64,000 bases of DNA. Source: Candidatus Heimdallarchaeum aukensis. Its GTDB lineage: Archaea > Asgardarchaeota > Heimdallarchaeia > Heimdallarchaeales > Heimdallarchaeaceae. A program made the position numbers and the translations under genes. The stretch lies in the NCBI GenBank assembly GCA_021513695.1, contig CP084166.1:3008001-3072000 (forward strand), given 5' to 3'. Positions 9,508 to 49,792 of this stretch are shown here, piece by piece. Every line of letters begins with the position of its first letter. Position 1 is the stretch's first letter. The notes under the pieces are model-generated. The model ran no database searches and was not told the origin of the DNA. It worked only from the letters and a program-made list of their open reading frames with translations.

Positions 9508-9614
9508 AGTACTTCCGCAATAAGTTGACTGATTTCTATAGGTTAAAATTATAGGAGTTCATACTATCATTGGCGTGTTCTCAATTCATACTTTTTGAGA
9601 TAATTCGGAAGTAC
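9508..9614. repeat. 107-bp element bounded by a perfect 11-bp inverted repeat (tagtacttccg / cggaagtacta); candidate structured sRNA or MITE-like element
   Basis: Exact reverse-complementary 11-mers at 9508-9518 and 9604-9614 lie in the intergenic region upstream of aSUI1. Confidence 0.3.
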
Positions 9615-9662
9615 TAATATTAACAAAAAAATATAAAAAGGATTGGAAGTAACTTTTTATGA

Positions 9663-9974
9663 ATGGAAGAAGATTTGTGTCCAGTATGTGGTTTACCTCA
9701 AGACCTTTGTGTCTGTGAGGGGTTAGCAAAAGAAGTGCAGATAATTAGAGTTTATTTAGAAAAAAGAAGATACGGCAAGAACTATACGTGCATATCAGGG
9801 ATTGATCCAAAAGAAGTCGACTTGGGAAATTTAGCGAAAAAACTTAAGACCCAACTTGCTTGTGGAGGAACGTACAAAGATGGAAGAATTGAGTTGCAAG
9901 GAGATCATAGATTTAAAATAAAAGATTTACTTGTAAACGCAGGTTTTCCCGCGGAAAATATAGAAGTGCAGTAA
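9663..9974 (+). CDS. Translation initiation factor SUI1/eIF1 homolog (aSUI1) with an N-terminal zinc knuckle
   Basis: CPVCGLPQDLCVCE followed by RRYGKNYTCISG and ACGGTYKDGRIELQGDHR, which is the archaeal aSUI1 signature. Confidence 0.9.
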   Translation: MEEDLCPVCGLPQDLCVCEGLAKEVQIIRVYLEKRRYGKNYTCISGIDPKEVDLGNLAKKLKTQLACGGTYKDGRIELQGDHRFKIKDLLVNAGFPAENIEVQ

Positions 9975-32992: not shown

Positions 32993-33122
32993 ATAATATA
33001 ATCCTCTTTTTTTTTATTTTCTTTTTTTTGAAGTTTTTAAAGAATAATCAAATTAAGTTAGCACAAATAACAGCAAAGTTAAATATGACTACCTTTGAGA
33101 ATAAAGTAAGATTGGTGAGATT

Positions 33123-34079
33123 ATGTCTGAGGATGAACAAAAAACTCAAGTTGAAGAAGAGAAAACTGAGGTAAAAGAAGAAAAAGAAGAAACTCCCTTG
33201 GAAATGTACCAAAAAGCTGGAAAAGTAGCTCACGAAATTCTTCAAACACTTAAAGATATGGCTAAACCCGGAGTTAAAGCTCTAGATTTAAGTGAAAAAG
33301 CAGATGCAATGATAGCTGAAGCAGGAATGAAACCTGCATTTCCTCTAAATATAGCAATAAACAATCATGCTGCTCATTACACTTGTCCTTGGGAAGATGA
33401 TTTGATTCTTCAAGAGGGAGATGTAGTAAAAATTGATGTTGGTGTTCATTATAAAGGTTTTATTGCAGATACAGCTTTAACTGTTGCTTTTGATGATGTC
33501 CATAATGATTTAATTAAAGCAAGTAAAGAAGCAACTGAAACAGCCGTAAAAGTTATACGTGTAGGAAATTATACTGGTAAATTAGGAGATCTAATTGAAA
33601 ATATTATTGAAGGATACGGCTTCTCAACAGTAAAAGACTTGTCAGGCCATTTGCTTATGCCTTATCTTGTTCATGGTCCAAAAACTATTCCAAATGTAAG
33701 TGGAAGAAAAGGTAACTTGATTTTACAAGATGAAGCTTATGCTATTGAAACCTTCGCAACAACAGGTGCAGGAGAATCAAAACCAGATAAAACAAAGTTA
33801 TATATTGTAAGGTTAGCAGAAGGAAGATTTCCACTAAGAACAAGAGCTGCAAAAGATGTTAGAAATCTTCTAGATAGAGAATATCATAGAATGCCTGTAG
33901 CAACAAGATGGATATATAAGGCCCTTGGTCCTGCTAAGGCAAAAATGGGTATTAGAGAATTAATTAATGTGGGAGCTTTATATCAATATCATGTGCTTTC
34001 TGATACTTCTGGATCTTTTGTATCACAGCATGAGCATACAGTTTACATGACAGAAGAAGGGCCAGTACAAACTACATAA
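33123..34079 (+). CDS. map: Methionine aminopeptidase type 2 with an acidic/Lys-rich N-terminal extension (copy 1)
   Basis: Pita-bread fold motifs (HAAHYTCP, DVGVHYKGFIADTA, SGHLL, IETFATTGAG). N-terminal MSEDEQKTQVEEEKTEVKEEKEE extension. Confidence 0.9.
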   Translation: MSEDEQKTQVEEEKTEVKEEKEETPLEMYQKAGKVAHEILQTLKDMAKPGVKALDLSEKADAMIAEAGMKPAFPLNIAINNHAAHYTCPWEDDLILQEGDVVKIDVGVHYKGFIADTALTVAFDDVHNDLIKASKEATETAVKVIRVGNYTGKLGDLIENIIEGYGFSTVKDLSGHLLMPYLVHGPKTIPNVSGRKGNLILQDEAYAIETFATTGAGESKPDKTKLYIVRLAEGRFPLRTRAAKDVRNLLDREYHRMPVATRWIYKALGPAKAKMGIRELINVGALYQYHVLSDTSGSFVSQHEHTVYMTEEGPVQTT

Positions 34080-34209
34080 TCCTTTTTTTATTTTACTGTT
34101 TATTTTTTGTTTTGAGAATAGTAATTTTGTATTTTCATTTAAAAAAATCATTTTTTAAGAACAATAAATCTTTAATATTGAAAAGTTGTAAATGAATGTG
34201 TTGATATAA

Positions 34210-35432
34210 TTGACTTTACAGACAAGTGAATTCAAATTTATAATGTATGAACCATGTTTTAATAATTACGATATTGTGTATAACGAATATATGCTGGCTT
34301 ATGAAGAATTTAAGAAACTAGGAGAAGAGATGTCAATTTTCGCGTTCTCTCTTACTTCTATGAAGGAATGCTCTATCTTATTAATGGTGACAAATTCTTT
34401 TCTCAGAAGGAATACAAAAAAGCAAATGAAAACTATGAAGAAGCACAAAAATTAATTACTCGCTCTAGAGCATCAAGAGGAATTGAAAAAGATACTATCT
34501 GGCAAGAAATGGTTAAATGGATAGCATATTGCGAATCTTATACTAATCTTTCCAAGAGTTATTTAGTCAAAGATTTCTCAGAAAAAATTGAACTATTAAA
34601 GAAAAGCAAGGCAGCAATTAAAGATTTTGTAGAAAAAAGGAAATATGATGAAAACATCATCTTGGATATCTATGCAAAAGCTAAAGAAAATTATATCAAG
34701 TACATTTATTACATAAATTTAGCTCAAAAATATGAGAAAAACACAAGAATGCAGAAAAAAATACTCCTTAAAGCGAGAAGAAAGCTACTTTTAGCTCACT
34801 TTATTCTTAATCACTATGAAGAAGAAATAGATGATTTAGACTTTAAAATTGATGAGCTAACAAAGACACACATAGTTGAAAGAGCAGAAATGTACTGGAA
34901 CAAGGGAACTTTACTAATTTCTCAAAGTGACTTTATGAGTGCACACAAATATCTTCTTCTAGCTTCTCAGTACTATGAACGAGCAAGCAAAATATGTTCA
35001 GAATTTATTGAATTAAGATTATATTTAGCTCTTAGTAAAATAACAGAAAGTAGCGGTCTTGAAGCAAAAGCTAATGAACTTTACAGAAGGCAGGACAAGC
35101 CCCTAGAAGCCAGTAAACTGTTTGAAGAAGCATATGAAGTTGTAGACGAATCCCTCGGTTTACTAGCTACAATTCACAATGAAGTGTTAATAAACAATAT
35201 GACTGCACAAAGATCTTATTATGAAGCTTTAGCACTCGAAGCAAAAGGTATATCCCTCTTTGACGAAGAGAAATATAAAGAATCTATAGAAATTTTTGAA
35301 CAATCAATGCAAAAATTAGAAGAAACAGAACGCTTAGTAGTCGAAGGTAGTTCAGAGCATTTACAAGAGTACATTCGCTTAGCTAAGAATGAGATTGAAG
35401 GTTATTTATCTATGGCAAAAACTATGCTTTAG
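34210..35432 (+). pseudogene. Frameshifted copy of the 407-aa alpha-helical (TPR-like) protein gene. It is split into 81-aa and 354-aa ORFs by a 1-nt deletion near 34330
   Basis: Copy 2 (39065-40288) reads ggagaagagaatgtc. Copy 1 reads ggagaagagatgtc, which shifts the frame. Confidence 0.55.
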
Positions 35433-35490
35433 TATCAAATTTTTCTTCAATCAATAATCTTTATTTATCACAATATAAACAATAAATGCA

Positions 35491-36186
35491 ATGCTGTTTG
35501 ACGATTTTGAAATAAAGGAGTACTTGGAAAATTTTTTCTCAAAGAATCTATCTGCCAAAGATTATCCTGAACCCGACACTGATCTCGATCATAAATTAGT
35601 TTGGAATTACAGTGAAAATGGAGATGCTTTTTCAGTACTTCTTGATCCAATAAATGATGCTTACGAATACTTTGGAGTTACTGTAGGTGAGATATTTGCT
35701 CACCATCGATTCAAACCAATTGTTTGGCACTTGTATCTTTTTGGCAATAAAATAAAGAGCTTTGAATGGATTAAATTAAAAGATGGAACTGATTATCTTA
35801 TTAATGTTGGGACTTACTCTTTTATTTCTTATATCTACGATTTTAAAAGTGGGAAAAGGTTATACAGAAACCCAATAGAAGAGATAAAATCTCAAATATA
35901 TTCACTTAACCTCAAGTATGATATATCTGTAAATGATGTAAATGAATTTGTAGAATATTCTTTTATTGAAGACTACAGGTGGGGAGAAGTTTCGAGAAAC
36001 GCTATAATAGCTCTTATACTAGATAATTTCAATAAAGATAAAATAAATGTTAATGTTCTAGGATTAATTAATCGTGTTTTACACGAATATTCTAATTACG
36101 AATCAGACAAACAACTACTAGAAAGAGTGAAAAAAGGAGAATCACCTTTTGAACTAGGGACTATCTTTTATAACGATTTTATATAA
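35491..36186 (+). CDS. Hypothetical protein (231 aa), copy 1
   Basis: An ORF identical to 40347-41042. Confidence 0.45.
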   Translation: MLFDDFEIKEYLENFFSKNLSAKDYPEPDTDLDHKLVWNYSENGDAFSVLLDPINDAYEYFGVTVGEIFAHHRFKPIVWHLYLFGNKIKSFEWIKLKDGTDYLINVGTYSFISYIYDFKSGKRLYRNPIEEIKSQIYSLNLKYDISVNDVNEFVEYSFIEDYRWGEVSRNAIIALILDNFNKDKINVNVLGLINRVLHEYSNYESDKQLLERVKKGESPFELGTIFYNDFI

Positions 36187-36199
36187 AAAGAGAAAAAAT

Positions 36200-36499
36200 T
36201 TAACTCATTTTAAATTCTACACCGAATCCTCCATGAGGATAGTGCCAATCAACACTTCCGTGAGGACAAACAAGCCTACATGTTCCACATTCAACACAAG
36301 GTGCATAATCAAACGTTACAGGTACATCTCCATCTTCAACTAGTTTATAACATTCTGCAGGGCAACCATATACACAGTCATATGTCTTACATTTAGTTTT
36401 GCATATCTCCTCGTTTATGGTAATGTGAGCAAAATTTTTGTCTGTAACATACTTTGTTAATGCAAGTTTTTCTTCAATTTTTATTGGATTTTCTACCAT
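36200..36499 (-). CDS. fixX: Ferredoxin-like protein FixX (copy 1)
   Basis: CVECGTCRLVCPHGSV 4Fe-4S-like motif, ~99 aa, immediately downstream of fixC. Confidence 0.8.
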   Translation of the reverse strand: MVENPIKIEEKLALTKYVTDKNFAHITINEEICKTKCKTYDCVYGCPAECYKLVEDGDVPVTFDYAPCVECGTCRLVCPHGSVDWHYPHGGFGVEFKMS

Positions 36500-36511
36500 T
36501 CTTTTCTCCTC

Positions 36512-37825
36512 CTAAATAGATCTTAAAGCAGCAAAAGCATCTCCCATGAGCTTAAACAGCTTACCTTTCTTTAGGAAGTGCTTAATAGCTGTAGGAACAA
36601 TTCTTTTTCTAGGCTCTCCAGTGTTGTGTAAAAGTTGATACATCAAAGAATTAAGCAGTTCTGGATAAACATTGAAAATTCTCTCTCTCTCCAAGAACTT
36701 TGCAGCTCGTTTAAATCTCTTCAAATCTTGCAAAACAAAACTATCTCGCAATAATTTCAAATAAATCTTTGTTCCTTCTGCAGAATAATCATTTGTTGTT
36801 AAAGCTTCTTTTGCTGCTAACCCTGCTAGTCTTCCAGACTCTAAAGCAAAATTCATACCTTCTATGTACAAACCTGCGTTAAGAACCATACCAGCAGCAT
36901 CACCAGCAATCATCACACCGTTCCCATATAACTTAGGCATGTGTTTGTATCCCCCTTCAGGAATAGCGTGAGCAGAGTATTCAACCATTTTAGCATCTTT
37001 AAGGAGCTTTTGGATGTAGGGGTGTTTCTTAAAATCTTCAAAAGCATCAATCGCTCTGATCTTTTTTTGTATAAGTTTTTTCATGTTTAAGATCAATCCA
37101 AAAGAAAGTGTTTCTTTATTTGTATAGAAGAATCCTCCTCCTGGAATTCCATGAGTATAACCTAGAAACTCGTTACTTATTCCTTCATTTCCATTAAGAT
37201 GAAATCTCTCTTCAATTATTTCTTTCTTTAATTCATATGTTTCTTTCATTCCTACAGCGTAGTGTGAAGGTGAAGGCTTTTTAGCAAGTTTAGCTTTTTC
37301 TGCTAATAAAGTAACAGCTCCTTCAGCAATTATAGTGAGTTTAGCTTTTAATTCATCTTCTCCAGATTCTATTCCTATAATTTGATTATCCTTCCAAATG
37401 AAATCTTCAGCTACAGTGTTGTCGAGAATAAAAGCTCCTGCTTCTTCTGCTTTTTGGGCCAACCATCTGTCAAATTTTGGACGAATAACAGTTACACCAT
37501 TGTAAGGTGGTTCGGCAAAATCTTGTAAATCAATATCAATAGTCATTGCTCGCTTTTCAGACAAAAGAGTAATCTTTTTAGTTGTTAAATATCTCTCAAT
37601 AGCATCTTCTTCCCAATAGTTAGGAACGATTTTATTTAGTACTGGGCCGTAAAGAGCTCCTCCACTTACATTTTTTGCACCAGGATACTGTCCTCTTTCA
37701 ATAATAGCAACCTCTTTTCCTTCCTTTGCTAAAGTTAATGCTGCAGAAGAACCAGCTAGTCCAGCTCCAACTATAATTACATCAAAATCGTATTCTACAG
37801 TCATAAAAAAATGTTTGATTTTCAA
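36512..37825 (-). CDS. fixC: FAD-dependent oxidoreductase FixC (ETF-quinone oxidoreductase-like), copy 1
   Basis: DVIIVGAGLAGSSAAL Rossmann motif; ~437 aa, FixC-like. Confidence 0.85.
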   Translation of the reverse strand: MKIKHFFMTVEYDFDVIIVGAGLAGSSAALTLAKEGKEVAIIERGQYPGAKNVSGGALYGPVLNKIVPNYWEEDAIERYLTTKKITLLSEKRAMTIDIDLQDFAEPPYNGVTVIRPKFDRWLAQKAEEAGAFILDNTVAEDFIWKDNQIIGIESGEDELKAKLTIIAEGAVTLLAEKAKLAKKPSPSHYAVGMKETYELKKEIIEERFHLNGNEGISNEFLGYTHGIPGGGFFYTNKETLSFGLILNMKKLIQKKIRAIDAFEDFKKHPYIQKLLKDAKMVEYSAHAIPEGGYKHMPKLYGNGVMIAGDAAGMVLNAGLYIEGMNFALESGRLAGLAAKEALTTNDYSAEGTKIYLKLLRDSFVLQDLKRFKRAAKFLERERIFNVYPELLNSLMYQLLHNTGEPRKRIVPTAIKHFLKKGKLFKLMGDAFAALRSI

Positions 37826-37977
37826 TATAAAATGTTTATGTGAAAATATAAAAAAGAAAATAGAAAAGAATGAAAAATTATTTTATCTTTTTTAAAGAAT
37901 AATCAAATTAAGTTAGCACAAATAACAGCAAAGTTAAATATGACTACCTTTGAGAATAAAGTAAGATTGGTGAGATT

Positions 37978-38934
37978 ATGTCTGAGGATGAACAAAAAAC
38001 TCAAGTTGAAGAAGAGAAAACTGAGGTAAAAGAAGAAAAAGAAGAAACTCCCTTGGAAATGTACCAAAAAGCTGGAAAAGTAGCTCACGAAATTCTTCAA
38101 ACACTTAAAGATATGGCTAAACCCGGAGTTAAAGCTCTAGATTTAAGTGAAAAAGCAGATGCAATGATAGCTGAAGCAGGAATGAAACCTGCATTTCCTC
38201 TAAATATAGCAATAAACAATCATGCTGCTCATTACACTTGTCCTTGGGAAGATGATTTGATTCTTCAAGAGGGAGATGTAGTAAAAATTGATGTTGGTGT
38301 TCATTATAAAGGTTTTATTGCAGATACAGCTTTAACTGTTGCTTTTGATGATGTCCATAATGATTTAATTAAAGCAAGTAAAGAAGCAACTGAAACAGCC
38401 GTAAAAGTTATACGTGTAGGAAATTATACTGGTAAATTAGGAGATCTAATTGAAAATATTATTGAAGGATACGGCTTCTCAACAGTAAAAGACTTGTCAG
38501 GCCATTTGCTTATGCCTTATCTTGTTCATGGTCCAAAAACTATTCCAAATGTAAGTGGAAGAAAAGGTAACTTGATTTTACAAGATGAAGCTTATGCTAT
38601 TGAAACCTTCGCAACAACAGGTGCAGGAGAATCAAAACCAGATAAAACAAAGTTATATATTGTAAGGTTAGCAGAAGGAAGATTTCCACTAAGAACAAGA
38701 GCTGCAAAAGATGTTAGAAATCTTCTAGATAGAGAATATCATAGAATGCCTGTAGCAACAAGATGGATATATAAGGCCCTTGGTCCTGCTAAGGCAAAAA
38801 TGGGTATTAGAGAATTAATTAATGTGGGAGCTTTATATCAATATCATGTGCTTTCTGATACTTCTGGATCTTTTGTATCACAGCATGAGCATACAGTTTA
38901 CATGACAGAAGAAGGGCCAGTACAAACTACATAA
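37978..38934 (+). CDS. map: Methionine aminopeptidase type 2 (copy 2)
   Basis: Identical to 33123-34079. Confidence 0.9.
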   Translation: MSEDEQKTQVEEEKTEVKEEKEETPLEMYQKAGKVAHEILQTLKDMAKPGVKALDLSEKADAMIAEAGMKPAFPLNIAINNHAAHYTCPWEDDLILQEGDVVKIDVGVHYKGFIADTALTVAFDDVHNDLIKASKEATETAVKVIRVGNYTGKLGDLIENIIEGYGFSTVKDLSGHLLMPYLVHGPKTIPNVSGRKGNLILQDEAYAIETFATTGAGESKPDKTKLYIVRLAEGRFPLRTRAAKDVRNLLDREYHRMPVATRWIYKALGPAKAKMGIRELINVGALYQYHVLSDTSGSFVSQHEHTVYMTEEGPVQTT

Positions 38935-39064
38935 TCCTTTTTTTATTTTACTGTTTATTTTTTGTTTTGAGAATAGTAATTTTGTATTTTCATTTAAAAA
39001 AATCATTTTTTAAGAACAATAAATCTTTAATATTGAAAAGTTGTAAATGAATGTGTTGATATAA

Positions 39065-40288
39065 TTGACTTTACAGACAAGTGAATTCAAATTTATAATG
39101 TATGAACCATGTTTTAATAATTACGATATTGTGTATAACGAATATATGCTGGCTTATGAAGAATTTAAGAAACTAGGAGAAGAGAATGTCAATTTTCGCG
39201 TTCTCTCTTACTTCTATGAAGGAATGCTCTATCTTATTAATGGTGACAAATTCTTTTCTCAGAAGGAATACAAAAAAGCAAATGAAAACTATGAAGAAGC
39301 ACAAAAATTAATTACTCGCTCTAGAGCATCAAGAGGAATTGAAAAAGATACTATCTGGCAAGAAATGGTTAAATGGATAGCATATTGCGAATCTTATACT
39401 AATCTTTCCAAGAGTTATTTAGTCAAAGATTTCTCAGAAAAAATTGAACTATTAAAGAAAAGCAAGGCAGCAATTAAAGATTTTGTAGAAAAAAGGAAAT
39501 ATGATGAAAACATCATCTTGGATATCTATGCAAAAGCTAAAGAAAATTATATCAAGTACATTTATTACATAAATTTAGCTCAAAAATATGAGAAAAACAC
39601 AAGAATGCAGAAAAAAATACTCCTTAAAGCGAGAAGAAAGCTACTTTTAGCTCACTTTATTCTTAATCACTATGAAGAAGAAATAGATGATTTAGACTTT
39701 AAAATTGATGAGCTAACAAAGACACACATAGTTGAAAGAGCAGAAATGTACTGGAACAAGGGAACTTTACTAATTTCTCAAAGTGACTTTATGAGTGCAC
39801 ACAAATATCTTCTTCTAGCTTCTCAGTACTATGAACGAGCAAGCAAAATATGTTCAGAATTTATTGAATTAAGATTATATTTAGCTCTTAGTAAAATAAC
39901 AGAAAGTAGCGGTCTTGAAGCAAAAGCTAATGAACTTTACAGAAGGCAGGACAAGCCCCTAGAAGCCAGTAAACTGTTTGAAGAAGCATATGAAGTTGTA
40001 GACGAATCCCTCGGTTTACTAGCTACAATTCACAATGAAGTGTTAATAAACAATATGACTGCACAAAGATCTTATTATGAAGCTTTAGCACTCGAAGCAA
40101 AAGGTATATCCCTCTTTGACGAAGAGAAATATAAAGAATCTATAGAAATTTTTGAACAATCAATGCAAAAATTAGAAGAAACAGAACGCTTAGTAGTCGA
40201 AGGTAGTTCAGAGCATTTACAAGAGTACATTCGCTTAGCTAAGAATGAGATTGAAGGTTATTTATCTATGGCAAAAACTATGCTTTAG
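39065..40288 (+). CDS. Alpha-helical repeat (TPR-like) protein, 407 aa, intact copy
   Basis: Uninterrupted ORF; all-helical and Lys/Glu-rich. No family recognised. Confidence 0.5.
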   Translation: MTLQTSEFKFIMYEPCFNNYDIVYNEYMLAYEEFKKLGEENVNFRVLSYFYEGMLYLINGDKFFSQKEYKKANENYEEAQKLITRSRASRGIEKDTIWQEMVKWIAYCESYTNLSKSYLVKDFSEKIELLKKSKAAIKDFVEKRKYDENIILDIYAKAKENYIKYIYYINLAQKYEKNTRMQKKILLKARRKLLLAHFILNHYEEEIDDLDFKIDELTKTHIVERAEMYWNKGTLLISQSDFMSAHKYLLLASQYYERASKICSEFIELRLYLALSKITESSGLEAKANELYRRQDKPLEASKLFEEAYEVVDESLGLLATIHNEVLINNMTAQRSYYEALALEAKGISLFDEEKYKESIEIFEQSMQKLEETERLVVEGSSEHLQEYIRLAKNEIEGYLSMAKTML

Positions 40289-40346
40289 TATCAAATTTTT
40301 CTTCAATCAATAATCTTTATTTATCACAATATAAACAATAAATGCA

Positions 40347-41042
40347 ATGCTGTTTGACGATTTTGAAATAAAGGAGTACTTGGAAAATTTTTTCTCAAAG
40401 AATCTATCTGCCAAAGATTATCCTGAACCCGACACTGATCTCGATCATAAATTAGTTTGGAATTACAGTGAAAATGGAGATGCTTTTTCAGTACTTCTTG
40501 ATCCAATAAATGATGCTTACGAATACTTTGGAGTTACTGTAGGTGAGATATTTGCTCACCATCGATTCAAACCAATTGTTTGGCACTTGTATCTTTTTGG
40601 CAATAAAATAAAGAGCTTTGAATGGATTAAATTAAAAGATGGAACTGATTATCTTATTAATGTTGGGACTTACTCTTTTATTTCTTATATCTACGATTTT
40701 AAAAGTGGGAAAAGGTTATACAGAAACCCAATAGAAGAGATAAAATCTCAAATATATTCACTTAACCTCAAGTATGATATATCTGTAAATGATGTAAATG
40801 AATTTGTAGAATATTCTTTTATTGAAGACTACAGGTGGGGAGAAGTTTCGAGAAACGCTATAATAGCTCTTATACTAGATAATTTCAATAAAGATAAAAT
40901 AAATGTTAATGTTCTAGGATTAATTAATCGTGTTTTACACGAATATTCTAATTACGAATCAGACAAACAACTACTAGAAAGAGTGAAAAAAGGAGAATCA
41001 CCTTTTGAACTAGGGACTATCTTTTATAACGATTTTATATAA
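40347..41042 (+). CDS. Hypothetical protein (231 aa), copy 2
   Basis: Identical to copy 1. Confidence 0.45.
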   Translation: MLFDDFEIKEYLENFFSKNLSAKDYPEPDTDLDHKLVWNYSENGDAFSVLLDPINDAYEYFGVTVGEIFAHHRFKPIVWHLYLFGNKIKSFEWIKLKDGTDYLINVGTYSFISYIYDFKSGKRLYRNPIEEIKSQIYSLNLKYDISVNDVNEFVEYSFIEDYRWGEVSRNAIIALILDNFNKDKINVNVLGLINRVLHEYSNYESDKQLLERVKKGESPFELGTIFYNDFI

Positions 41043-41055
41043 AAAGAGAAAAAAT

Positions 41056-41355
41056 TTAACTCATTTTAAATTCTACACCGAATCCTCCATGAGGATAGTG
41101 CCAATCAACACTTCCGTGAGGACAAACAAGCCTACATGTTCCACATTCAACACAAGGTGCATAATCAAACGTTACAGGTACATCTCCATCTTCAACTAGT
41201 TTATAACATTCTGCAGGGCAACCATATACACAGTCATATGTCTTACATTTAGTTTTGCATATCTCCTCGTTTATGGTAATGTGAGCAAAATTTTTGTCTG
41301 TAACATACTTTGTTAATGCAAGTTTTTCTTCAATTTTTATTGGATTTTCTACCAT
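41056..41355 (-). CDS. fixX: Ferredoxin-like protein FixX (copy 2)
   Basis: Identical to copy 1. Adjacent to fixC and fixB. Confidence 0.8.
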   Translation of the reverse strand: MVENPIKIEEKLALTKYVTDKNFAHITINEEICKTKCKTYDCVYGCPAECYKLVEDGDVPVTFDYAPCVECGTCRLVCPHGSVDWHYPHGGFGVEFKMS

Positions 41356-41367
41356 TCTTTTCTCCTC

Positions 41368-42681
41368 CTAAATAGATCTTAAAGCAGCAAAAGCATCTCC
41401 CATGAGCTTAAACAGCTTACCTTTCTTTAGGAAGTGCTTAATAGCTGTAGGAACAATTCTTTTTCTAGGCTCTCCAGTGTTGTGTAAAAGTTGATACATC
41501 AAAGAATTAAGCAGTTCTGGATAAACATTGAAAATTCTCTCTCTCTCCAAGAACTTTGCAGCTCGTTTAAATCTCTTCAAATCTTGCAAAACAAAACTAT
41601 CTCGCAATAATTTCAAATAAATCTTTGTTCCTTCTGCAGAATAATCATTTGTTGTTAAAGCTTCTTTTGCTGCTAACCCTGCTAGTCTTCCAGACTCTAA
41701 AGCAAAATTCATACCTTCTATGTACAAACCTGCGTTAAGAACCATACCAGCAGCATCACCAGCAATCATCACACCGTTCCCATATAACTTAGGCATGTGT
41801 TTGTATCCCCCTTCAGGAATAGCGTGAGCAGAGTATTCAACCATTTTAGCATCTTTAAGGAGCTTTTGGATGTAGGGGTGTTTCTTAAAATCTTCAAAAG
41901 CATCAATCGCTCTGATCTTTTTTTGTATAAGTTTTTTCATGTTTAAGATCAATCCAAAAGAAAGTGTTTCTTTATTTGTATAGAAGAATCCTCCTCCTGG
42001 AATTCCATGAGTATAACCTAGAAACTCGTTACTTATTCCTTCATTTCCATTAAGATGAAATCTCTCTTCAATTATTTCTTTCTTTAATTCATATGTTTCT
42101 TTCATTCCTACAGCGTAGTGTGAAGGTGAAGGCTTTTTAGCAAGTTTAGCTTTTTCTGCTAATAAAGTAACAGCTCCTTCAGCAATTATAGTGAGTTTAG
42201 CTTTTAATTCATCTTCTCCAGATTCTATTCCTATAATTTGATTATCCTTCCAAATGAAATCTTCAGCTACAGTGTTGTCGAGAATAAAAGCTCCTGCTTC
42301 TTCTGCTTTTTGGGCCAACCATCTGTCAAATTTTGGACGAATAACAGTTACACCATTGTAAGGTGGTTCGGCAAAATCTTGTAAATCAATATCAATAGTC
42401 ATTGCTCGCTTTTCAGACAAAAGAGTAATCTTTTTAGTTGTTAAATATCTCTCAATAGCATCTTCTTCCCAATAGTTAGGAACGATTTTATTTAGTACTG
42501 GGCCGTAAAGAGCTCCTCCACTTACATTTTTTGCACCAGGATACTGTCCTCTTTCAATAATAGCAACCTCTTTTCCTTCCTTTGCTAAAGTTAATGCTGC
42601 AGAAGAACCAGCTAGTCCAGCTCCAACTATAATTACATCAAAATCGTATTCTACAGTCATAAAAAAATGTTTGATTTTCAA
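41368..42681 (-). CDS. fixC: FAD-dependent oxidoreductase FixC (copy 2)
   Basis: Identical to copy 1. Directly downstream of fixB. Confidence 0.85.
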   Translation of the reverse strand: MKIKHFFMTVEYDFDVIIVGAGLAGSSAALTLAKEGKEVAIIERGQYPGAKNVSGGALYGPVLNKIVPNYWEEDAIERYLTTKKITLLSEKRAMTIDIDLQDFAEPPYNGVTVIRPKFDRWLAQKAEEAGAFILDNTVAEDFIWKDNQIIGIESGEDELKAKLTIIAEGAVTLLAEKAKLAKKPSPSHYAVGMKETYELKKEIIEERFHLNGNEGISNEFLGYTHGIPGGGFFYTNKETLSFGLILNMKKLIQKKIRAIDAFEDFKKHPYIQKLLKDAKMVEYSAHAIPEGGYKHMPKLYGNGVMIAGDAAGMVLNAGLYIEGMNFALESGRLAGLAAKEALTTNDYSAEGTKIYLKLLRDSFVLQDLKRFKRAAKFLERERIFNVYPELLNSLMYQLLHNTGEPRKRIVPTAIKHFLKKGKLFKLMGDAFAALRSI

Positions 42682-42733
42682 TATAAAATGTTTATGTGAA
42701 AATATAAAAAAGAAAATAGAAAAGAATGAAAAA

Positions 42734-43708
42734 TTATTTTATCTTTTCTTTTAAAATAGGAAGAATTTGATGAAGATCTCCAACTATTCCATAATCACAA
42801 TATTTGAATATAGAAGCTCTTTCGTCAGTGTTTATTGCTATCAAGGTCTTGGCTTTAACTCCACAGATATGTTGAGGTGCACCACTAATTCCTGCGGCAA
42901 TATACAAATCAGGGGAAACTGACTGACCAGTTTGGCCTATTTCATAAGTTTCTTCTATCCAATGTAGATCTGTGCAGGCTCTTGTTGCACCCATTTCTCC
43001 TCCAAGCAAGTCAGCTAGTTCTTTAATAATAGCGAATTTGTCTTTTCCACCTACACCCCTTCCTCCAGCAACAATTATCTTTGCATCTTTAAGATTAACT
43101 GTCTTCTTCGCTTTAAGAATCTCTACACTTTTAACAATTCTATCTTTTTCATCGAATGAAACAGTTAATTTTTCTATTTCTGGTTCTTGTCCTTCTGGAT
43201 TCTCATCTATAAAGAAAGCTCCTGCACGAGTTGTGATGAATATTTTTTCTCCTTTAGATTTCATTTTTACCATAGCTTGGTCGTCTCTAACTGGAGTAAT
43301 AGCTATAAGATCATCACCCTCTAAAATCAAGTCAGTTACTCTTTCAAGACAAGTAGTGTTATAATGAACAGCTAATCTGGGAATGAGGTCTTCTACATTA
43401 ACTAGTCCTCCACCAATAACTACTTTAGGGTCAGCAGTTTTGATAATCTCTAACATAGCTTTTACATAAGCTCGAGAAAGGTAAGTGCTCAATTCAGGAG
43501 CTTCTACTACAAAGACTTTTTTAGCTCCGTGCTTACCTAAAGTGGAAATCCATTCATCTTTAGCTTGTTCACAGAGGAGAGCAGCAGAAACATCTCCTAA
43601 ACTAGTAAAGTTTTTGACTTTATTTAGAACTCCTAAAACGTTTTCTTCTATTTCTCCATCTCTGATTAAAGCAAAAACAAGTATTCCAGTCATTTTATGC
43701 ACCCCCAA
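42734..43708 (-). CDS. fixB: Electron transfer flavoprotein alpha subunit (FixB/EtfA)
   Basis: ETF alpha FAD-binding C-terminal domain motifs (IIVAGGRGV, YIAAGISGAPQH). Confidence 0.85.
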   Translation of the reverse strand: MGVHKMTGILVFALIRDGEIEENVLGVLNKVKNFTSLGDVSAALLCEQAKDEWISTLGKHGAKKVFVVEAPELSTYLSRAYVKAMLEIIKTADPKVVIGGGLVNVEDLIPRLAVHYNTTCLERVTDLILEGDDLIAITPVRDDQAMVKMKSKGEKIFITTRAGAFFIDENPEGQEPEIEKLTVSFDEKDRIVKSVEILKAKKTVNLKDAKIIVAGGRGVGGKDKFAIIKELADLLGGEMGATRACTDLHWIEETYEIGQTGQSVSPDLYIAAGISGAPQHICGVKAKTLIAINTDERASIFKYCDYGIVGDLHQILPILKEKIK

Positions 43709-44737: not shown

Positions 44738-45793
44738 ATGAATATCGACAGAAATGAAATTATAAAGATGCAAGAAAAGCTAAGCAATCTTATTGGTTGC
44801 CCAGGGCATGAAGAAGAAGTTGCAGAATTCATATTATCACAATTAAATGATTGTGTAGATCGAGCTTGGATTGACCCTCTTGGTAACGTATTAGCTATTA
44901 AAAAAGGAACAGTAGAAAATGGTATGAAAATTCTTTTAGATGCTCACATGGATGAAGTAGGATTTATGATTTCGCACATTGAAGAAAAAGGTTTTCTAAG
45001 AATTGCTCCACTTGGTGGAATAGATAAAAGAGTTATGCTTGGCTCTTTACTTCAATTTCAGACAGATAACAATGAAAAAATAGTTGGGATAGTTGGCTCT
45101 CATCCTCCTCATATAACAAAAAGTGAAGAAAGAGAAAGAGTTCCTGAAATATCAGAAATGTTTGTTGACATTGGTTACCAATCGCGAGAAGAAGTACTAG
45201 CAAAAGGATTACATGTAGGAAGTGTTGGAACTTTCTATACCAAATTTGAACAATTAGATGATGAAACTGTAATAGGTAAAGCATTTGATGATAGAACAGC
45301 TTGTAATGTCTTGTTACAAGTTTTAAAAGCTCTTAAAGATGTCGAGCATCCCCATACAATTTTAGCAGTATTTGCAGTGCAAGAAGAAGTAGGAGGAAGA
45401 GGAGCGACAGTAGGAGCTTTTGAACTTCAACCTACAATGGCTTTAGCTTTAGAAAATACTATCGCAAGTGACGTGGTAGGAGTCCCCACTAACAAAGTAG
45501 TTACAAGTATTGGAAAGGGACCAGCAGTAACTGCTGCTGATAGATCACTAATAACACCAAAAAAAGTCCTAAATCGTATTAAACAAGCCGCAGAAAAAGA
45601 TGACATTAAAACACAGTATAAAATGCCCATTTTTGGAGGATCAGATGGAGGAAGAATAGCTATCACTCGATCTGGAGTACCAACAGGTGTGGTTAGTGTT
45701 CCCTGTCGATATATTCACGGGCCTGTAGCTATGTTAAAAATAAAAGATATAGAAGAAACTATAAAACTAGTTTACAACTTTTGCACAATTTAA
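44738..45793 (+). CDS. M42-family aminopeptidase (TET/FrvX-like)
   Basis: LLDAHMDEVGFMI, plus the conserved DDR and EEVG motifs. Confidence 0.85.
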   Translation: MNIDRNEIIKMQEKLSNLIGCPGHEEEVAEFILSQLNDCVDRAWIDPLGNVLAIKKGTVENGMKILLDAHMDEVGFMISHIEEKGFLRIAPLGGIDKRVMLGSLLQFQTDNNEKIVGIVGSHPPHITKSEERERVPEISEMFVDIGYQSREEVLAKGLHVGSVGTFYTKFEQLDDETVIGKAFDDRTACNVLLQVLKALKDVEHPHTILAVFAVQEEVGGRGATVGAFELQPTMALALENTIASDVVGVPTNKVVTSIGKGPAVTAADRSLITPKKVLNRIKQAAEKDDIKTQYKMPIFGGSDGGRIAITRSGVPTGVVSVPCRYIHGPVAMLKIKDIEETIKLVYNFCTI

Positions 45794-45825
45794 AGAAAAA
45801 GTAAAAATTTCTTTTTCTTTTTTTC

Positions 45826-46392
45826 TTATTTATACAATTCTAAATATTCATCAAACAGGATATCCATTAGAATTATGTCATAGTATTTGCCTTCATGAAA
45901 GCGAGCCTTTCTTCTTCTACCAATGTGTTTGAAACCTAATTTCTCATAAACGTGGACAGCTCGTTTATTAAACTCAAAAACCTCGAGTTCTATTCTGTTT
46001 AAGTTGAGAATAAGAAAACCAAATTTCAAAATACATTTTGTAGCATCAGAGCCATATCCTTTGTTATGATTAGCAGGATTGTGAATAGCTATTCCAAAAA
46101 CACAAGTCCTATTTATCCAGTCAATATTCATTAAAGAAACGCTACCAAGAAATTCATTTTTTTCCTTCTCGACAATAGCAAATGTGAAGGATGAACGACG
46201 ATTAGCATCACGATAAAGGCTTTGAATCCATTCTTCTTCTTGTGTTGAACTGTGTGGAATAGGATGACCAAGGTATTGCCTAGTTTCATAAGTATTCCAA
46301 TATTTCATTATGTCTTTAAGATCTGATTTTTCAACAGGTCGAAGTATAACTTTTTCACCTATGAATGGTGAACCAAAGTCTTTTGATGTCAT
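45826..46392 (-). CDS. GNAT-family N-acetyltransferase (RimJ/RimL-like)
   Basis: Acetyl-CoA binding motif region (GYGSDA) and a RimL-like N-terminal region. Confidence 0.8.
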   Translation of the reverse strand: MTSKDFGSPFIGEKVILRPVEKSDLKDIMKYWNTYETRQYLGHPIPHSSTQEEEWIQSLYRDANRRSSFTFAIVEKEKNEFLGSVSLMNIDWINRTCVFGIAIHNPANHNKGYGSDATKCILKFGFLILNLNRIELEVFEFNKRAVHVYEKLGFKHIGRRRKARFHEGKYYDIILMDILFDEYLELYK

Positions 46393-46529
46393 AATAGTCT
46401 GAAATTCTTCAAAGTTTAAAAATTTGTCTAATCAAACCTTATTTATAAACAATTACAGTTTAAAAAAAGAAAAAAAGAAAAAAAGTTATTTGATATGAGC
46501 TGGTCTATATCCAGCATGTGCAAGAATAC

Positions 46530-46880
46530 TTGTTGCTTTACCTATGATTTACTTTTTTACATAAAGTTTTTCGCACTCTGTCTTGCAAGAGAAAAAACTA
46601 AAGGAAGTTTAATCTCTTGAACTCAACCAAGCCATACAATGCCGTGAAGGGGTTGAGACAGACATCATACACGAATCGTGGGAATCATAAAGAAGAAAAG
46701 AGTTGTAAGTTCTTTTCTTCACTCCACGAGAGACAAAAAAGAAAGAATTACCCACTAAAAGAGAGAAGTAATTACTTTCCTTTTTGTCTACTGGGACTGC
46801 AACCAATGGCTGAGCCCTAGACAAACAGTGAAATGAGTGAGACTGTATTTCTGACCAGTGAGGTAATCGGTGATAGTATT
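46530..46880 (-). ncRNA. Putative omega-RNA (reRNA) of the TnpB element, overlapping the tnpB 3' end and extending downstream
   Basis: A conspicuously GC-rich, stop-codon-poor segment sits immediately 3' of tnpB on the minus strand. It explains the symmetric spurious ORFs on both strands at 46609-46824. Confidence 0.4.
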
Positions 46881-48245
46881 TCCTCGAGGACGGAAAAGTT
46901 CCCCAAGGAACTTACGCGCGATATTCATTGCTCCAGTGAGGTCAGAGTGGAAAGTGTAATTGCAAGAGGGACAATGGACTAAACCTCTAACGGGACGGAT
47001 AACTTTCCTTCCGCAACGAGTACAGTGAGAGGATGTTCCTTTTTCCTCTATCGTTAATATTCGGTGAGGTTCAAAACCTCTTAATATCAATGCTCGATGA
47101 AGAAGAGCAAGAACAAGAGAAAAGTTCCACTGATGAAGTTTTCTACGAAACTTACGAGTAATTTTTCTCTTTCCTTTCTCCTCTCGAATGTGTTTAGGAT
47201 AACCTACAACGACGAAAAGGTCATACCTTTGTGCATAAGTTTCTATCGTCTGCACGACATTGTTTATAAATTGGTGAATATAGACGCGTTTAACGTTTTT
47301 ATATCTTCTTCGGAGAAGGCCGAGAAAACGGTAAATTTGGTGTTTTTTACCAGATTGGTCGTTTAAAGCCGCTTTCCTCTGAAGACGGGAAAGTTTGAGT
47401 TTATATCGATGATTAACTCTATTCCACTGTTTGGTATACCAGAATTTTATCTCTTTGTTTGTTAATTTCTTTTTAGGGGTTAGAAGCACTCCTGCAGCAG
47501 GAATGTTTATACCTAGATCTATTCCCAGCACAGCTGGGGGAAGAGAAGAAGAATTCTCTTTTTCAGGAGAATAAAAAGAAGGAGGAGGAAGAACTTTTAG
47601 TTGGAAATACACCCACCACTCACGTGTAGAACGTTTATATCTTAGTTCTAAACTTTTCACTCTCCCTTTCTTTAACTCTTTCTGGTGGAAAGTGCTCATC
47701 TCTAAAGGTAACCATAGTTTCTGATGATAAGGTGTGTTTCTTCTCCACGTATCTAACGAGTCTCTTATCCCCACCCACCAACGAGTAAGTGTATTATTCT
47801 TCTCTTTTGGCAGATGCACGAGAACAAACCTCTTTGCATTAATTAGTTGTCTTCTTGCTCTCTTTATTGGAAGACGAGTAGGACTGGGTCTATACCCTTG
47901 CTCGTATAGTTGCACAGCTATATCTCTACATTCTTGGAATTCATTGTGAGAACAATAAGGGAACATTTTCTTGAAATCGTGAAGAACAGTCTCTCTCCTC
48001 TCTTCTACTCTCTTTAATCTTGATGTCGTTAGCGTCAGTTCATCTAGTTTTCCTCTGTGAACTCTTATTTTCCCATTTTTAGTTTTAGTACATATTTTTC
48101 TTCTGTTGTGATGTATAATTCTCACATACTTTTCTATTATCCTTGTGTCTCTCCCCGTTATTTTCCTTAACTTTTCCTTTTTTCTCGTCGTCAATACCTC
48201 ATTCTTTATCCTCACTTTCAAGGTTTTGACGACGTCCTCCACCAT
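46788..48245 (-). CDS. tnpB: TnpB-like RNA-guided endonuclease (IS200/IS605 OrfB family)
   Basis: RuvC-I GIDLGINIP, zinc finger CTRCG...CPSC, RuvC-III DLTGAMNIARK at the C-terminus. GC content is clearly higher than in flanking genes. No adjacent tnpA. Confidence 0.85.
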   Translation of the reverse strand: MVEDVVKTLKVRIKNEVLTTRKKEKLRKITGRDTRIIEKYVRIIHHNRRKICTKTKNGKIRVHRGKLDELTLTTSRLKRVEERRETVLHDFKKMFPYCSHNEFQECRDIAVQLYEQGYRPSPTRLPIKRARRQLINAKRFVLVHLPKEKNNTLTRWWVGIRDSLDTWRRNTPYHQKLWLPLEMSTFHQKELKKGRVKSLELRYKRSTREWWVYFQLKVLPPPSFYSPEKENSSSLPPAVLGIDLGINIPAAGVLLTPKKKLTNKEIKFWYTKQWNRVNHRYKLKLSRLQRKAALNDQSGKKHQIYRFLGLLRRRYKNVKRVYIHQFINNVVQTIETYAQRYDLFVVVGYPKHIREEKGKRKITRKFRRKLHQWNFSLVLALLHRALILRGFEPHRILTIEEKGTSSHCTRCGRKVIRPVRGLVHCPSCNYTFHSDLTGAMNIARKFLGELFRPRGNTITDYLTGQKYSLTHFTVCLGLSHWLQSQ

Positions 48246-48375
48246 TTTTTTCCTTCCTTCTTTTCTTTTTCTGTTTATTTTTTCTATTTTTTTTCTTCTT
48301 CTCTTTTTATTTTACTTTTTTTTCCTATAAAAACCCCTCTCCTTCCTCTCCTCTCTTCTCTTTCTTCCTCACTTT
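48246..48375 (+). repeat. ~130-nt polypyrimidine (C/T) tract on the plus strand, immediately upstream of the tnpB start
   Basis: The run tttttttccttccttcttttctttttctg...cctctccttcctctcctctcttctctttcttcctc is a near-pure pyrimidine strand. Confidence 0.7.
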
Positions 48376-48565
48376 GCTGTCAACAACTGTAAATTACGTA
48401 AAAAATAGACGCATGTGAATCGTCAATACTTAGTTTATATATTATTTAAATATTATTCCTCTTAAACTGCCATTATCCAGTAAAATATTTATATATTTTT
48501 GAGAAAAACATATTTTCTTAAAATTATATTTTTTGAATAAGGAAAAAGATAGTCCAAGACCAAAT

Positions 48566-49072
48566 TTAAGTAGATTCGTTTTTATCTTTTTCAAAATTAC
48601 TTATTATTTTTTCCAAAACTTGTTCTATCTCTGTTTTGGATTTAAGAGAAAGGAAATAATATTCAATATTGAATTTGTTTGCTATACTTGCCACTTCTTC
48701 TTCACTTATTTCATGATATGCTTCTAAGTCTTTTTTAGACCCAATAAAAATGATGTTAGGTATGAATTTCAAAGCTTCTGCTACTTCTTTTATCCACTTA
48801 TGAACATCTATAAACGAGCTCCTTCTAGTGAGATCAAAGACAACAAAAATCACATTACTGCCAACATAATATGACTTCCTTATTTCAGTAAATCTTTGTT
48901 GAGCTGGTAGGTCCCAAAGAGTTAAATTGTACTTTTCTCCTTTAATTTCGATAGAATAAGTAGCAATATTTTGGCCATATTCTTCTTTTCTTACTTCTGT
49001 GGTTAGCGTTCTTAGTAACTCTGTTTTACCTACTCCTGCCTCACCGACGATACAAATCTTTAGATTATGCAT
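48566..49072 (-). CDS. Ras/Rab-like small GTPase
   Basis: G1 GEAGVGKT, G3 WDLPAQ (DxxGQ-like), G4 GSKKD (NKxD-like), G5 LSLKS. 168 aa, a typical small GTPase size. Confidence 0.8.
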   Translation of the reverse strand: MHNLKICIVGEAGVGKTELLRTLTTEVRKEEYGQNIATYSIEIKGEKYNLTLWDLPAQQRFTEIRKSYYVGSNVIFVVFDLTRRSSFIDVHKWIKEVAEALKFIPNIIFIGSKKDLEAYHEISEEEVASIANKFNIEYYFLSLKSKTEIEQVLEKIISNFEKDKNEST

Positions 49073-49153
49073 TAATAGATACTTCTTTTTACTACAAAAA
49101 AAAGCTTTTGTATGAATTTTTGTTTTGTTAATTTATCACGTATTTGTTGTTTT

Positions 49154-49792
49154 TTACTTTCTTATTCCTTCAAATAGGATTGTAAGTATTTCTTTTATGT
49201 TTTCTTCAATTTCATTACTCTCAATTTTAAATCCTTCTTCTAAATAACCTGTCGCTCCTAAAGCTGGTCTAGAAGAAGATATGAAAAGAAAAGCTAGAGT
49301 TTTAGCTCTTACATCTTTTCTTATTTTTCCTTTTTCTTGACATTTTCTAAAAAACTCTGTAAGTTTCTCTAGGGCAATTGTAGATTGGGCAAGTTCTTCG
49401 AATATAGGTCTTAATTCAGGATTGTGAAATTCTTTATACAATATAAGTAAAATTTTCCTAAATTTCAAGGCAAAATTCCAAAATTCAAGACTAACTCTAT
49501 ATAGAGTTTCATAGGGATTTTCTGATAATTCATCAATTTTTTCTCCAAATTGTTTCCACATCTTGTTGGATAGTTCTATTCCTCTTTTAATTATGGTTTC
49601 AAAAATCTCTGTTTTATTTCTAAAATATTTGTAAACTAAAGCTTCTGAAACTCCTTCTTCTTCTGCTATATCTTTCATAGTTGTGTAGGCTACTCCTTTT
49701 TTAGAAAATAGTTCTATAGCTGTACGTAGAATTCTCTCTTTTCTTTCTTCTTTCTTAAGCCATTTATGCTCTTCTTTTTTGTTTTCACGCAT
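49154..49792 (-). CDS. TetR/AcrR-family transcriptional regulator
   Basis: N-terminal HTH (RILRTAIELFSKKGVAYTTMKDIAEEEGVSEALVYKYF). Divergent from the ABC transporter genes. Confidence 0.85.
   Translation of the reverse strand: MRENKKEEHKWLKKEERKERILRTAIELFSKKGVAYTTMKDIAEEEGVSEALVYKYFRNKTEIFETIIKRGIELSNKMWKQFGEKIDELSENPYETLYRVSLEFWNFALKFRKILLILYKEFHNPELRPIFEELAQSTIALEKLTEFFRKCQEKGKIRKDVRAKTLAFLFISSSRPALGATGYLEEGFKIESNEIEENIKEILTILFEGIRK

Follow-up and report, generated by a model that had tools for sequence, protein, structure and literature searches.

What kind of element carries a solitary tnpB gene in the genome of an Asgard archaeon, and how does it move, if it moves at all? This question is raised by a stretch of 64,000 nucleotides from Candidatus Heimdallarchaeum aukensis (contig CP084166.1 of assembly GCA_021513695.1, positions 3,008,001 to 3,072,000; the whole stretch is referred to as the window, and all coordinates are those of the window). 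An open reading frame (ORF) of 485 amino acids on the minus strand, at 46788-48245, encodes a TnpB homolog. The original prediction, made from the letters of the window, described this gene as a domesticated or immobile, IS1341-like nuclease that had been acquired horizontally and has a putative omegaRNA on its 3' side. A comparison with related genomes is presented here. The gene belongs to a discrete unit of 1,872 bp (48415-46544, minus strand) that is present in multiple copies, is under selection, and has moved recently. We think it rather probable that this unit is a non-autonomous 1.87-kb insertion sequence (IS) specific to the Heimdallarchaeaceae, with its own promoter, an intact tnpB gene and a 3' omegaRNA scaffold at its right boundary, and that it is moved in trans.

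Copies, insertion site and ends of the element

A scan of the reference genomes, as had been proposed for defining the element ends, finds at least 11 loci with copies in the chromosome of Ca. H. endolithica (CP084167.1). Between the window and 11 of these loci, DNA homology is confined to 48415-46544 and the flanks are unrelated. The left end thus lies slightly beyond the span originally given for the element (46490-48400), and the right end is at 46544 rather than near 46500. The copies inside H. endolithica are 75-97% identical to each other, and in the closest pair (96.8%) the homology ends at the element ends. Four of the copies interrupt host genes precisely. More copies are present in other metagenome-assembled genomes (MAGs), where they are solo and are located amid housekeeping genes. 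The best homologs of the protein, with 82-90% identity, are from H. endolithica, H. aukensis, and Heimdallarchaeaceae MAGs, while distant homologs, with 33-51% identity, are found in other Heimdall and Thor archaea.

The state of the site before insertion can be seen in a relative (locus L092, GCA_054387635.1) that shows approximately 93% nucleotide identity to the window and is syntenic with it over the genes FtsX-TetR-GTPase ... GNAT-M42 peptidase-ETF. At the position of the element, L092 has an intact gene for a 259-residue SBP_bac_5 protein, which is intact in locus L093 as well. Homology between the window and L092 runs through the CATG at the left junction (CAT at 48413-48415, minus strand) and stops at its G (48412), so this CAT is derived from the target. 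The stop coincides with the ATG start codon of the SBP_bac_5 gene. Homology resumes at the C of the CAT at the right end, where L092 reads AACAT followed directly by TGGTAAAGC. Roughly 716 bp of L092 are gone from the window beside the element, and of the SBP_bac_5 gene only the last 19 codons and the stop codon are left (46486-46543, minus strand). Both breakpoints in the window therefore fall on a CAT that is already present in the host sequence. As the orthologous site in L092 lacks the element, insertion took place after the two lineages had split, and adjacent host DNA was lost. Two other loci have related structures. A 5'-truncated copy (L011) starts exactly at an internal CATG, and at L119/L013 the right end of the element adjoins the C-terminal half of a PhzF-family gene, the N-terminal half of which is gone. 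Deletions from an element end to another CAT seem to recur, in the window, in L011, and in L119/L013.

The base composition of the element also sets it apart. Its GC content is 0.379 (0.393 for the ORF) as compared to 0.318 ± 0.021 for the window, making it the 1.87-kb stretch with the highest GC in the window (top 0.2% of such stretches). The tnpB ORF has the highest GC among 46 long ORFs, and its GC at third codon positions is 0.352, against a median of 0.215. The original observation that the gene is richer in GC than the host DNA is borne out by these numbers, and its reading as acquired DNA fits the recent insertion seen from the empty L092 site. In comparison, the non-coding 3' region, which had also been called GC-rich, has a GC content of 0.348; the GC peak of 0.45 falls in the 3' end of the ORF.

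These data bear directly on the possibility that the gene is domesticated or immobile, fixed at this position for a host function, for example as an RNA-guided regulator of the TldR type. The lack of an adjacent transposase and the intact ORF under purifying selection would suit such a role, and distant relatives in Thorarchaeota adjoin the same large gene at 33 loci. However, the orthologous site of the 93%-identical relative is empty, one genome contains at least 11 copies with unrelated flanks, four of which interrupt host genes, and the unit has sharp boundaries carrying terminal inverted repeats (TIRs). TldR proteins lose RuvC residues and are fixed in position, whereas the element in the window keeps its catalytic triad and varies in position. 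Domestication is therefore most improbable in our view.

The junctions of the element have a consistent sequence. Of 18 copies, 17 have CATG at the left end, and one (L118) has GATG. The right junction is CAT (46544-46546, minus strand) in all copies with a right end, comprising 14 copies and three further loci; among the latter, L119 represents a single insertion together with L013. The base following the CAT at the right end is G in 10 of 14 copies (p = 6e-6), and the base preceding the CAT at the left end is T in none of 15 (p = 0.004). The four insertions that split genes provide a test of the junctions. The host ORFs (818, 588, 374, and 411 codons) reopen when the element is removed and 0, 3 or 6 junction bases are kept, whereas keeping 1, 2 or 4 junction bases does not restore the frames. 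Together with L092, this frame test indicates, in the simplest reading, that the target holds a single CAT and that the inserted element is flanked by CAT on both sides. Insertion is precise and oriented, at 5'-CAT-3' (often CATG). No target-site duplication (TSD) beyond CAT is seen in any copy. A duplication of four bases, CATG, was considered as well, and is ruled out both by the frame test and by copies whose right flank has A or T as its first base.

The two ends are related to each other by inversion. Homology among 11 copies starts with the left arm (CATGCGTCTATTTTTTACGTAATTTACAG..., 48386-48415, minus strand), and the right arm (...ACTTTATGTAAAAAAGTAAATCAT, 46544-46573, minus strand) closes the element. 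The TIR reads CATGMTTYWMTTTTTKVCG..., with the left arm being an imperfect reverse complement of the right end (...AAGTAAATCAT) over 22-36 bp that reach to the very termini. Two subfamilies of the element can be distinguished from their arms, TTTTTTACGTAA in subfamily A and TTTTTGCGAA in subfamily B, where each end has two tandem 9-bp motifs. About 31 of 36 positions match in subfamily B (z of approximately 10 against random internal segments) and about 18 of 22 in subfamily A. The relatives with 42% identity (L019-L021) have a TIR of their own, TTTTCCCYAC, in elements that start with CATGA and end with CTCATG. The left arm of subfamily B scores 20.5 against the right arm of the same subfamily, compared to 8.1 for the left arm of subfamily A against the right arm of subfamily B. 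Judged from the aligned arms, such co-variation between subfamilies would be expected if one protein recognizes both ends as double-stranded DNA. A chimeric copy in H. endolithica (L004, the same locus as L117) has a left end of subfamily A and a right end of subfamily B, which indicates recombination between the subfamilies.

The TIRs are difficult to reconcile with the IS1341-like nature assigned to the element originally. According to this view, the element would belong to the IS1341 group of the classical IS200/IS605 family, and a Y1 HUH transposase (TnpA) encoded elsewhere would move it in single-stranded form, with insertion 3' of CAT or CATG; the right CAT would be the element's own cleavage site, and the resemblance of the ends would be incidental. 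Several features are in line with it. Any duplication is limited to at most three bases, insertion is oriented on a non-palindromic motif of one strand, and CATG at the left end in 17 of 18 copies, as opposed to a variable base after the right CAT, is an asymmetry like that of IS605. Moreover, relatives of the protein are annotated as IS605 OrfB in the source databases, and copies with only tnpB far exceed tnpA in many archaea (PMC3119063). On the other hand, neither TIRs nor TSDs are found in IS200/IS605 and IS607 elements according to a 2026 review (PMC13565253), whereas the element in the window has TIRs and a CAT at both junctions. Its ends match in inverted, not direct, orientation to the very termini, and the arms co-vary across three subfamilies; an enzyme acting on a single strand needs like structures on the same strand, and we see no convincing subterminal hairpins shared in direct orientation. 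In addition, there is no Y1 gene within the window or near any copy examined, and the host CAT at the endpoint of the right-side deletion relative to L092 is left unexplained. We regard this classical mode of movement as unlikely.

The TnpB protein and the putative omegaRNA

The three RuvC motifs and the CxxC...CxxC zinc finger described in the original prediction are all present in the 485-residue protein. The GIDLG motif carries Asp243 (codon 47519-47517, minus strand), the IEEKGTS motif, immediately ahead of the zinc finger, carries Glu401 (47045-47043), and the HSDLTGAMNIARK motif carries Asp435 (46943-46941; HSDLTGAMNIA). The zinc finger consists of Cys408, Cys411, Cys425, and Cys428 (Cys408-Cys428 at 47024-46962). 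The catalytic residues and the four cysteines are invariant (7 of 7) in an alignment of 37 homologs, down to 33% identity; loss of the RuvC residues on alignment had been named beforehand as grounds for abandoning the assignment, and they are kept.

The assignment is supported by profile and structure comparisons. The protein matches PF07282 (Cas12f1-like TNB) with 36.7 bits, above the cut-off of 26.3, with the zinc finger inserted between RuvC-II and RuvC-III. The score with the Cas12f2 model of NCBIfam is 64.5, versus a cut-off of 450. A search of the Protein Data Bank (PDB) with the single sequence reached only zinc-finger look-alikes, and a family profile was therefore needed, with which Cas12f and TnpB chains are matched at E values of about 1e-20. 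In this profile alignment, the Asp-Glu-Asp triad lines up with the RuvC motifs of Cas12f and TnpB. An AlphaFold model computed from the family alignment has a pLDDT of 82 and superposes on three classes of solved structure, and the 485-residue protein shows the overall WED-REC-RuvC fold. Sequence identity to the solved TnpBs is 12-15%. Fanzor2 ranks under Cas12f and TnpB in the structure and profile comparison; for Fanzor1, the comparison covered PDB entries. The dN/dS ratio between the window copy and 11 other copies is 0.12-0.19. The protein belongs to the TnpB/Cas12f superfamily, with the TnpB/Cas12f fold, an intact active site, and purifying selection.

Upstream of the gene, a purine-rich stretch with the box TTTTTATA (48326-48345, with the box itself at 48333-48326, minus strand) is read as an archaeal promoter with a B recognition element and a TATA-type box. 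The sequence TTTTTATAG is invariant in all copies and is found also upstream of the 42%-identity relatives L018-L020, which suggests that this stretch is the tnpB promoter. It is followed by a polypurine 5' leader of variable length (48246-48325, minus strand), with GGAAGGA directly ahead of the ATG. The composition of the leader is kept but its sequence is not (identity of 0.34-0.8).

On the 3' side of the gene, all copies share a conserved stretch of 244 nucleotides that leads from the stop codon to the right end, with conservation ending sharply at ...AAATCAT. Two segments can be distinguished here. The first is a hairpin that spans the stop codon (46729-46792, minus strand), with a stem formed by an A-tract and a T-tract and a hypervariable loop. 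The stem columns are conserved, and they pair in every one of the 14 copies, whereas insertions and deletions abound in the loop. The second is the core of a putative omegaRNA scaffold (46544-46728, minus strand, 185 nucleotides), which ends exactly at the right end of the element, with homology being lost beyond this point. The right arm of the TIR overlaps the 3' end of the scaffold, and this segment is thus under two constraints.

The region was folded on the minus strand, as the original prediction had proposed: the sense strand gives -73.6 kcal/mol (z of -5.0), compared to a z of -3.35 for the antisense strand. An RNAalifold analysis of 14 copies identifies 51 base pairs, five of them with compensatory changes, and several G-U pairs are possible on the sense strand only. 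In the core, 98.8% of cells are paired, versus 38-53% with slid partners, and the covariation score is 0.145, versus at most 0.075 with slid partners. The identity of the top non-coding block is 0.93, as compared to 0.77 at the third codon positions of the ORF. These third positions are not more conserved toward the 3' end of the ORF, and for this reason the RNA probably starts near the stop codon. The flank just 3' of the scaffold is different in every copy. When the core is used to build a covariance model (R1), this model detects the RNA also behind the tnpB gene of a relative with 51% identity (L016, E of about 6e-6), and in the window it matches this one site only.

Several observations count against an RNA of this kind. 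No Rfam family is matched, either in an E-value scan of 45500-49500 or in a gathering-threshold scan of the whole window, so that of the covariance-model searches originally suggested, the one with known families is empty and the one with R1 is positive. Most of the compensatory changes go back to one divergence, that of two subfamilies from each other; in helices 1, 3, and 4 there is no variation, or it affects a single side. Relatives with 42% identity give a weak fold signal (z of -1.3 and -2.0). Finally, the hairpin at the stop codon contains a T6 tract (46740-46735), ahead of the RNA core, that might terminate transcription in the archaeal manner.

Taking these points together with the conservation, structure, and strand specificity of the region, we consider it likely that the 3' region is an omegaRNA scaffold. 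The prediction of an omegaRNA or reRNA 3' of the gene would then hold, with the flank beyond the scaffold in the place of the predicted guide, but with the right end at 46544. On the model of the TnpB omegaRNAs characterized so far, the guide would comprise about 16-20 nucleotides from 46543 downwards, as in the predicted guide AGGTAAAGCAACAAGTATTC (46524-46543, minus strand). The region had also been described as open in several frames; short ORFs do exist on both strands (46609-46824), but they overlap the structured RNA region and are not conserved as ORFs. ARAGORN finds no tRNA. A local CGTGG/CCACG stem was dropped from the fold, as subfamily B reads CCCCG there.

Proposed movement of the element in trans

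The absence of a TnpA partner, noted in the original prediction, extends beyond the window. Pfam scans of 20 small ORFs of the window detect no Y1 transposase or resolvase, and a Pfam scan of 31 large ORFs shows no transposase among the 25 listed of the 48 matched families. No Y1 partner lies beside any copy examined, and no recurrent neighbor gene is found in the Heimdall loci. In viral contigs there are only generic TnpBs, 23-32% identical, and no exact matches to the TIR or the RNA core. As neither the window nor the surroundings of the copies examined contain a transposase, the element would be mobilized in trans.

Two candidates for a partner were considered and rejected. In a gene of 1,398 amino acids beside the Thor-type relatives, no domain can be detected; the gene occurs in Thorarchaeota only, at low copy number, and lies outside the DNA shared by the tnpB copies. 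It belongs to a Thorarchaeota-restricted family of 1,400-1,700 residues (L095:5489-9685, minus strand, and 32 other loci) without a sequence match in Pfam, NCBIfam, or the PDB, which adjoins the Thor-type tnpB in divergent orientation in 33 of about 70 loci; the DNA homology between those tnpB copies ends roughly 100 bp upstream of tnpB. The other candidate is an IS3/IS481-type element with an rve integrase near L010, L015, and L022. It has TG..CA ends and is merely inserted into or near tnpB copies: beside tnpB in L010 (542-1554), within the omegaRNA region of L015 (~2736-3780), and within the tnpB ORF of L022 (~1751-2207).

The cycle that we propose for the element, in which an enzyme acts in trans on its double-stranded inverted-repeat ends, would run as follows. 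Transcription would begin from the TTTTTATA box, about 80 nucleotides upstream of the ATG, and the 3' untranslated region would be used or processed as an omegaRNA. Because the scaffold ends at the right boundary of the element, the guide would be read from the DNA beside the insertion. The likeliest mover would be a DDE-type transposase that makes a 3-bp duplication. It is preferred here because of the precedent of DDE-linked TnpBs, the TIR ends, and the end-adjacent deletions, which are typical of intramolecular transposition by DDE enzymes; the element ends would promote adjacent deletions that stop at other CAT sites, as with the 716-bp loss in the lineage of the window. After movement, TnpB with its omegaRNA may cut guide-matched vacated or naive DNA beside a target-adjacent motif (TAM) that contains CAT, and thereby favor retention of the element through recombinational repair. 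Retention by this route has been demonstrated for the TnpBs of IS605 and IS607. As T never precedes the left CAT while the right end of the element reads TCAT, the junctions suggest a VCAT TAM, which would spare the occupied site.

Some of the evidence does not favor this proposal. CAT is not palindromic, which is unusual for a duplication made by a transpososome with two-fold symmetry. The junctions fit alike a duplication of CAT, a duplication of AT within CATG, or a shared recombination core. The TIR of the window copy itself is weak (15 of 22 matches in a count by eye, z of 2.1). In the loci examined, the 3-6 kb around some 18 copies contain no transposase or recombinase, and none is found that shares the element ends. 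In addition, the guided_TnpB model of NCBIfam gives 77.9 bits, under its cut-off of 100, and covers residues 147-445 only; the lineage is divergent.

The ambiguity of the junctions leads to another mover, a site-specific recombinase that would use CAT or its internal AT as the shared crossover core. A recombinase of this type fits the junction data equally well. The element would pass through a double-stranded circle by conservative recombination, catalyzed either by an IS607-like serine recombinase or by a tyrosine recombinase of the kind found in Cryptons, with scarless excision and insertion; such excision would be useful to homing by TnpB, which pays off when excision is scarless (PMC13565253). 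The short sequence that occurs once in the uninterrupted site is found at each terminus of the element, as with CryptonS (TATGG at both termini) and IS607 (ends in GG) (PMC13565253). The targets often resemble the element junction TCATG, given the G after CAT in 10 of 14 copies, and we read the two tandem 9-bp motifs at each end in subfamily B as resembling the multiple binding sites of a recombinase. Against this stand the lack of TIRs in IS607 elements (PMC13565253) and the catalytically dead nature of the TnpBs described with tyrosine recombinases (PMC10691335), the TnpB of the window being intact. There is also no recombinase gene in the window or near any copy examined, and the three loci with deletions beside an element end look more like the typical outcome of intramolecular transposition by a DDE enzyme. 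We therefore consider a recombinase somewhat unlikely as the mover, and movement in trans by a DDE-type transposase is kept as the preferred model.

Relation to known TnpB elements and implications

The protein shares the Asp-Glu-Asp triad and the C4 zinc finger with the TnpBs of ISDra2 (8H1J) and ISFba1 (8IAZ), and the element inserts in an oriented manner at a short motif, as do members of the IS200/IS605 family. The TnpB/omegaRNA systems of IS200/IS605 likewise have a structured RNA region on the 3' side of the gene that extends to the right end, with a variable flank beyond it. The element differs from this family in its TIRs, in the CAT on both sides, and in that no Y1 TnpA is found in the window or the loci. 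Moreover, IS200/IS605 TnpBs have about 400 residues, whereas the protein studied here has 485 and falls below the TnpB cut-off of NCBIfam. It differs from IS607 in having TIRs, in its termini (CATG...CAT instead of GG), and in the absence of a resolvase-type gene from the window and the loci. While the kind of element is well known, inverted-repeat ends together with insertion at CAT thus misfit both classical TnpB families.

The element resembles more the rare TnpB transposons that are bounded by TIRs, and their solo derivatives. TnpBs surrounded by TIRs accompany DDE transposases (ISL2, IS630, IS1031), tyrosine recombinases, or Cas1 (PMC13565253). The ends of solo TnpBs can be the same as those of copies that carry a transposase, and the 3' end of tnpB is usually less than 250 bp from the transposon end (PMC10691335). 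The element shares with the DDE-associated TnpBs of IS630, ISL2, and IS1031 (Altae-Tran et al. 2023, PMC10691335) the TIRs, a 3' distance below 250 bp (244 nucleotides here), and the presumed mobilization of solo copies in trans. The CAT repeat is compatible with a short duplication, but it is CAT and not TA or TNA, and no DDE gene with the ends of this element is found in the loci examined. Duplications of 2-3 bp are made by ISL2 and IS1031.

Comparison with other RNA-guided systems reveals further differences. Like the TnpBs associated with aCas1 in Asgard archaea (Cas1H-Asgard-1 and -2; PMC10691335), the TnpB studied here is an Asgard-specific lineage. However, the motif published for those elements, GTTCACTCA, is absent from 46400-48500 of the window, the termini differ, and there is no Cas1 near any copy of the window type examined. 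The Thorarchaeota relatives, with 33-35% identity, do have GTTCACTCA near the 3' end and an inverted copy near the 5' end. These Thor-type elements carry inverted GGGAGTGAACTC / GAGGTTCACTCACC near both ends (L095 ~9942-9965 and ~11765-11788, and the aligned loci), of which the 3' one corresponds to GTTCACTCA, with no adjacent Cas1 in the loci examined. In contrast to type V-F Cas12f (AsCas12f, 8DZJ, 8J3R), the gene in the window is without a CRISPR array or cas genes and lies inside a transposon. With Fanzor it has in common that a TnpB-type nuclease resides in an inverted-repeat transposon; the sequence at both termini recalls CryptonS, and the host lineage is near the eukaryotes. Here, however, the host is archaeal, and the protein is no closer to Fanzor than to bacterial TnpB.

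A few other features of the window were recorded. A perfect tandem duplication of 4,859 bp (33034-37891 and 37889-42747, 99.98% identity) contains several genes per copy, among them a 99-residue Fer4_ETF_QO ferredoxin-like gene and a 231-residue protein without a Pfam match; either the segment was duplicated very recently, or the repeat is an artefact of assembly. A 113-bp element at 9507-9619, upstream of the SUI1/eIF1 gene, resembles a miniature inverted-repeat transposable element. It has perfect 11-bp inverted ends, TAGTACTTCCG / CGGAAGTACTA, between TA dinucleotides, and is probably an IS630/Tc1-type derivative. A copy with 97% identity lies in a flank from H. endolithica (L003), and just upstream of the tnpB of L015 there is one end of this element. 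The repeat finder identifies a tandem repeat at 709-866 with a period of 42 nucleotides, in three overlapping 74-nucleotide units that are 76% identical. A TRAP-beta homolog (PF05753, 13077-13838, minus strand) and a Ras-family small GTPase (48569-49072, minus strand) are eukaryotic signature proteins, consistent with the Asgard (Heimdallarchaeaceae) origin of the window.

For specialists, a solo TnpB with an omegaRNA is ordinary, and the distinctive part of the element is the TIR/CAT architecture in Heimdallarchaeia. The transposase and transposon passages of the Heimdallarchaeum genome paper (PMC8813620) count transposase families, with up to 27 copies; these passages contain no analysis of TnpB or guide RNAs. 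If the mover is an ordinary IS5-type DDE transposase, the element will be one more case of a rare association that has already been described. A bolder reading, which we put forward as doubtful, is that Heimdallarchaeia harbor an undescribed class of TnpB/omegaRNA transposons that are bounded by TIRs, integrate at CAT, and are moved by an enzyme of neither the Y1 nor the IS607 type, perhaps itself new. Such elements would be a prokaryotic counterpart to the eukaryotic Fanzors in TIR or Crypton transposons, in those archaea that are closest to eukaryotes, with a TAM overlapping CAT, so that VCAT would be cut and the TCAT of the element itself spared. If this is true, discrimination between VCAT and TCAT would link the choice of target to homing.

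Cas12 and Fanzor both descend from TnpB elements, which also serve as a source of compact genome editors. What is known of TnpB biology comes almost wholly from IS605, with its Y1 transposase, and IS607, with its serine recombinase, both of which excise scarlessly. With the element described here, it becomes tractable to ask how an RNA-guided nuclease earns its place in another type of transposon, and which enzyme moves it. Its exact ends, the predicted scaffold of 185-245 nucleotides and the guide position can be used for a TAM screen, and its Asgard setting is relevant to the route from TnpB to the eukaryotic Fanzor.

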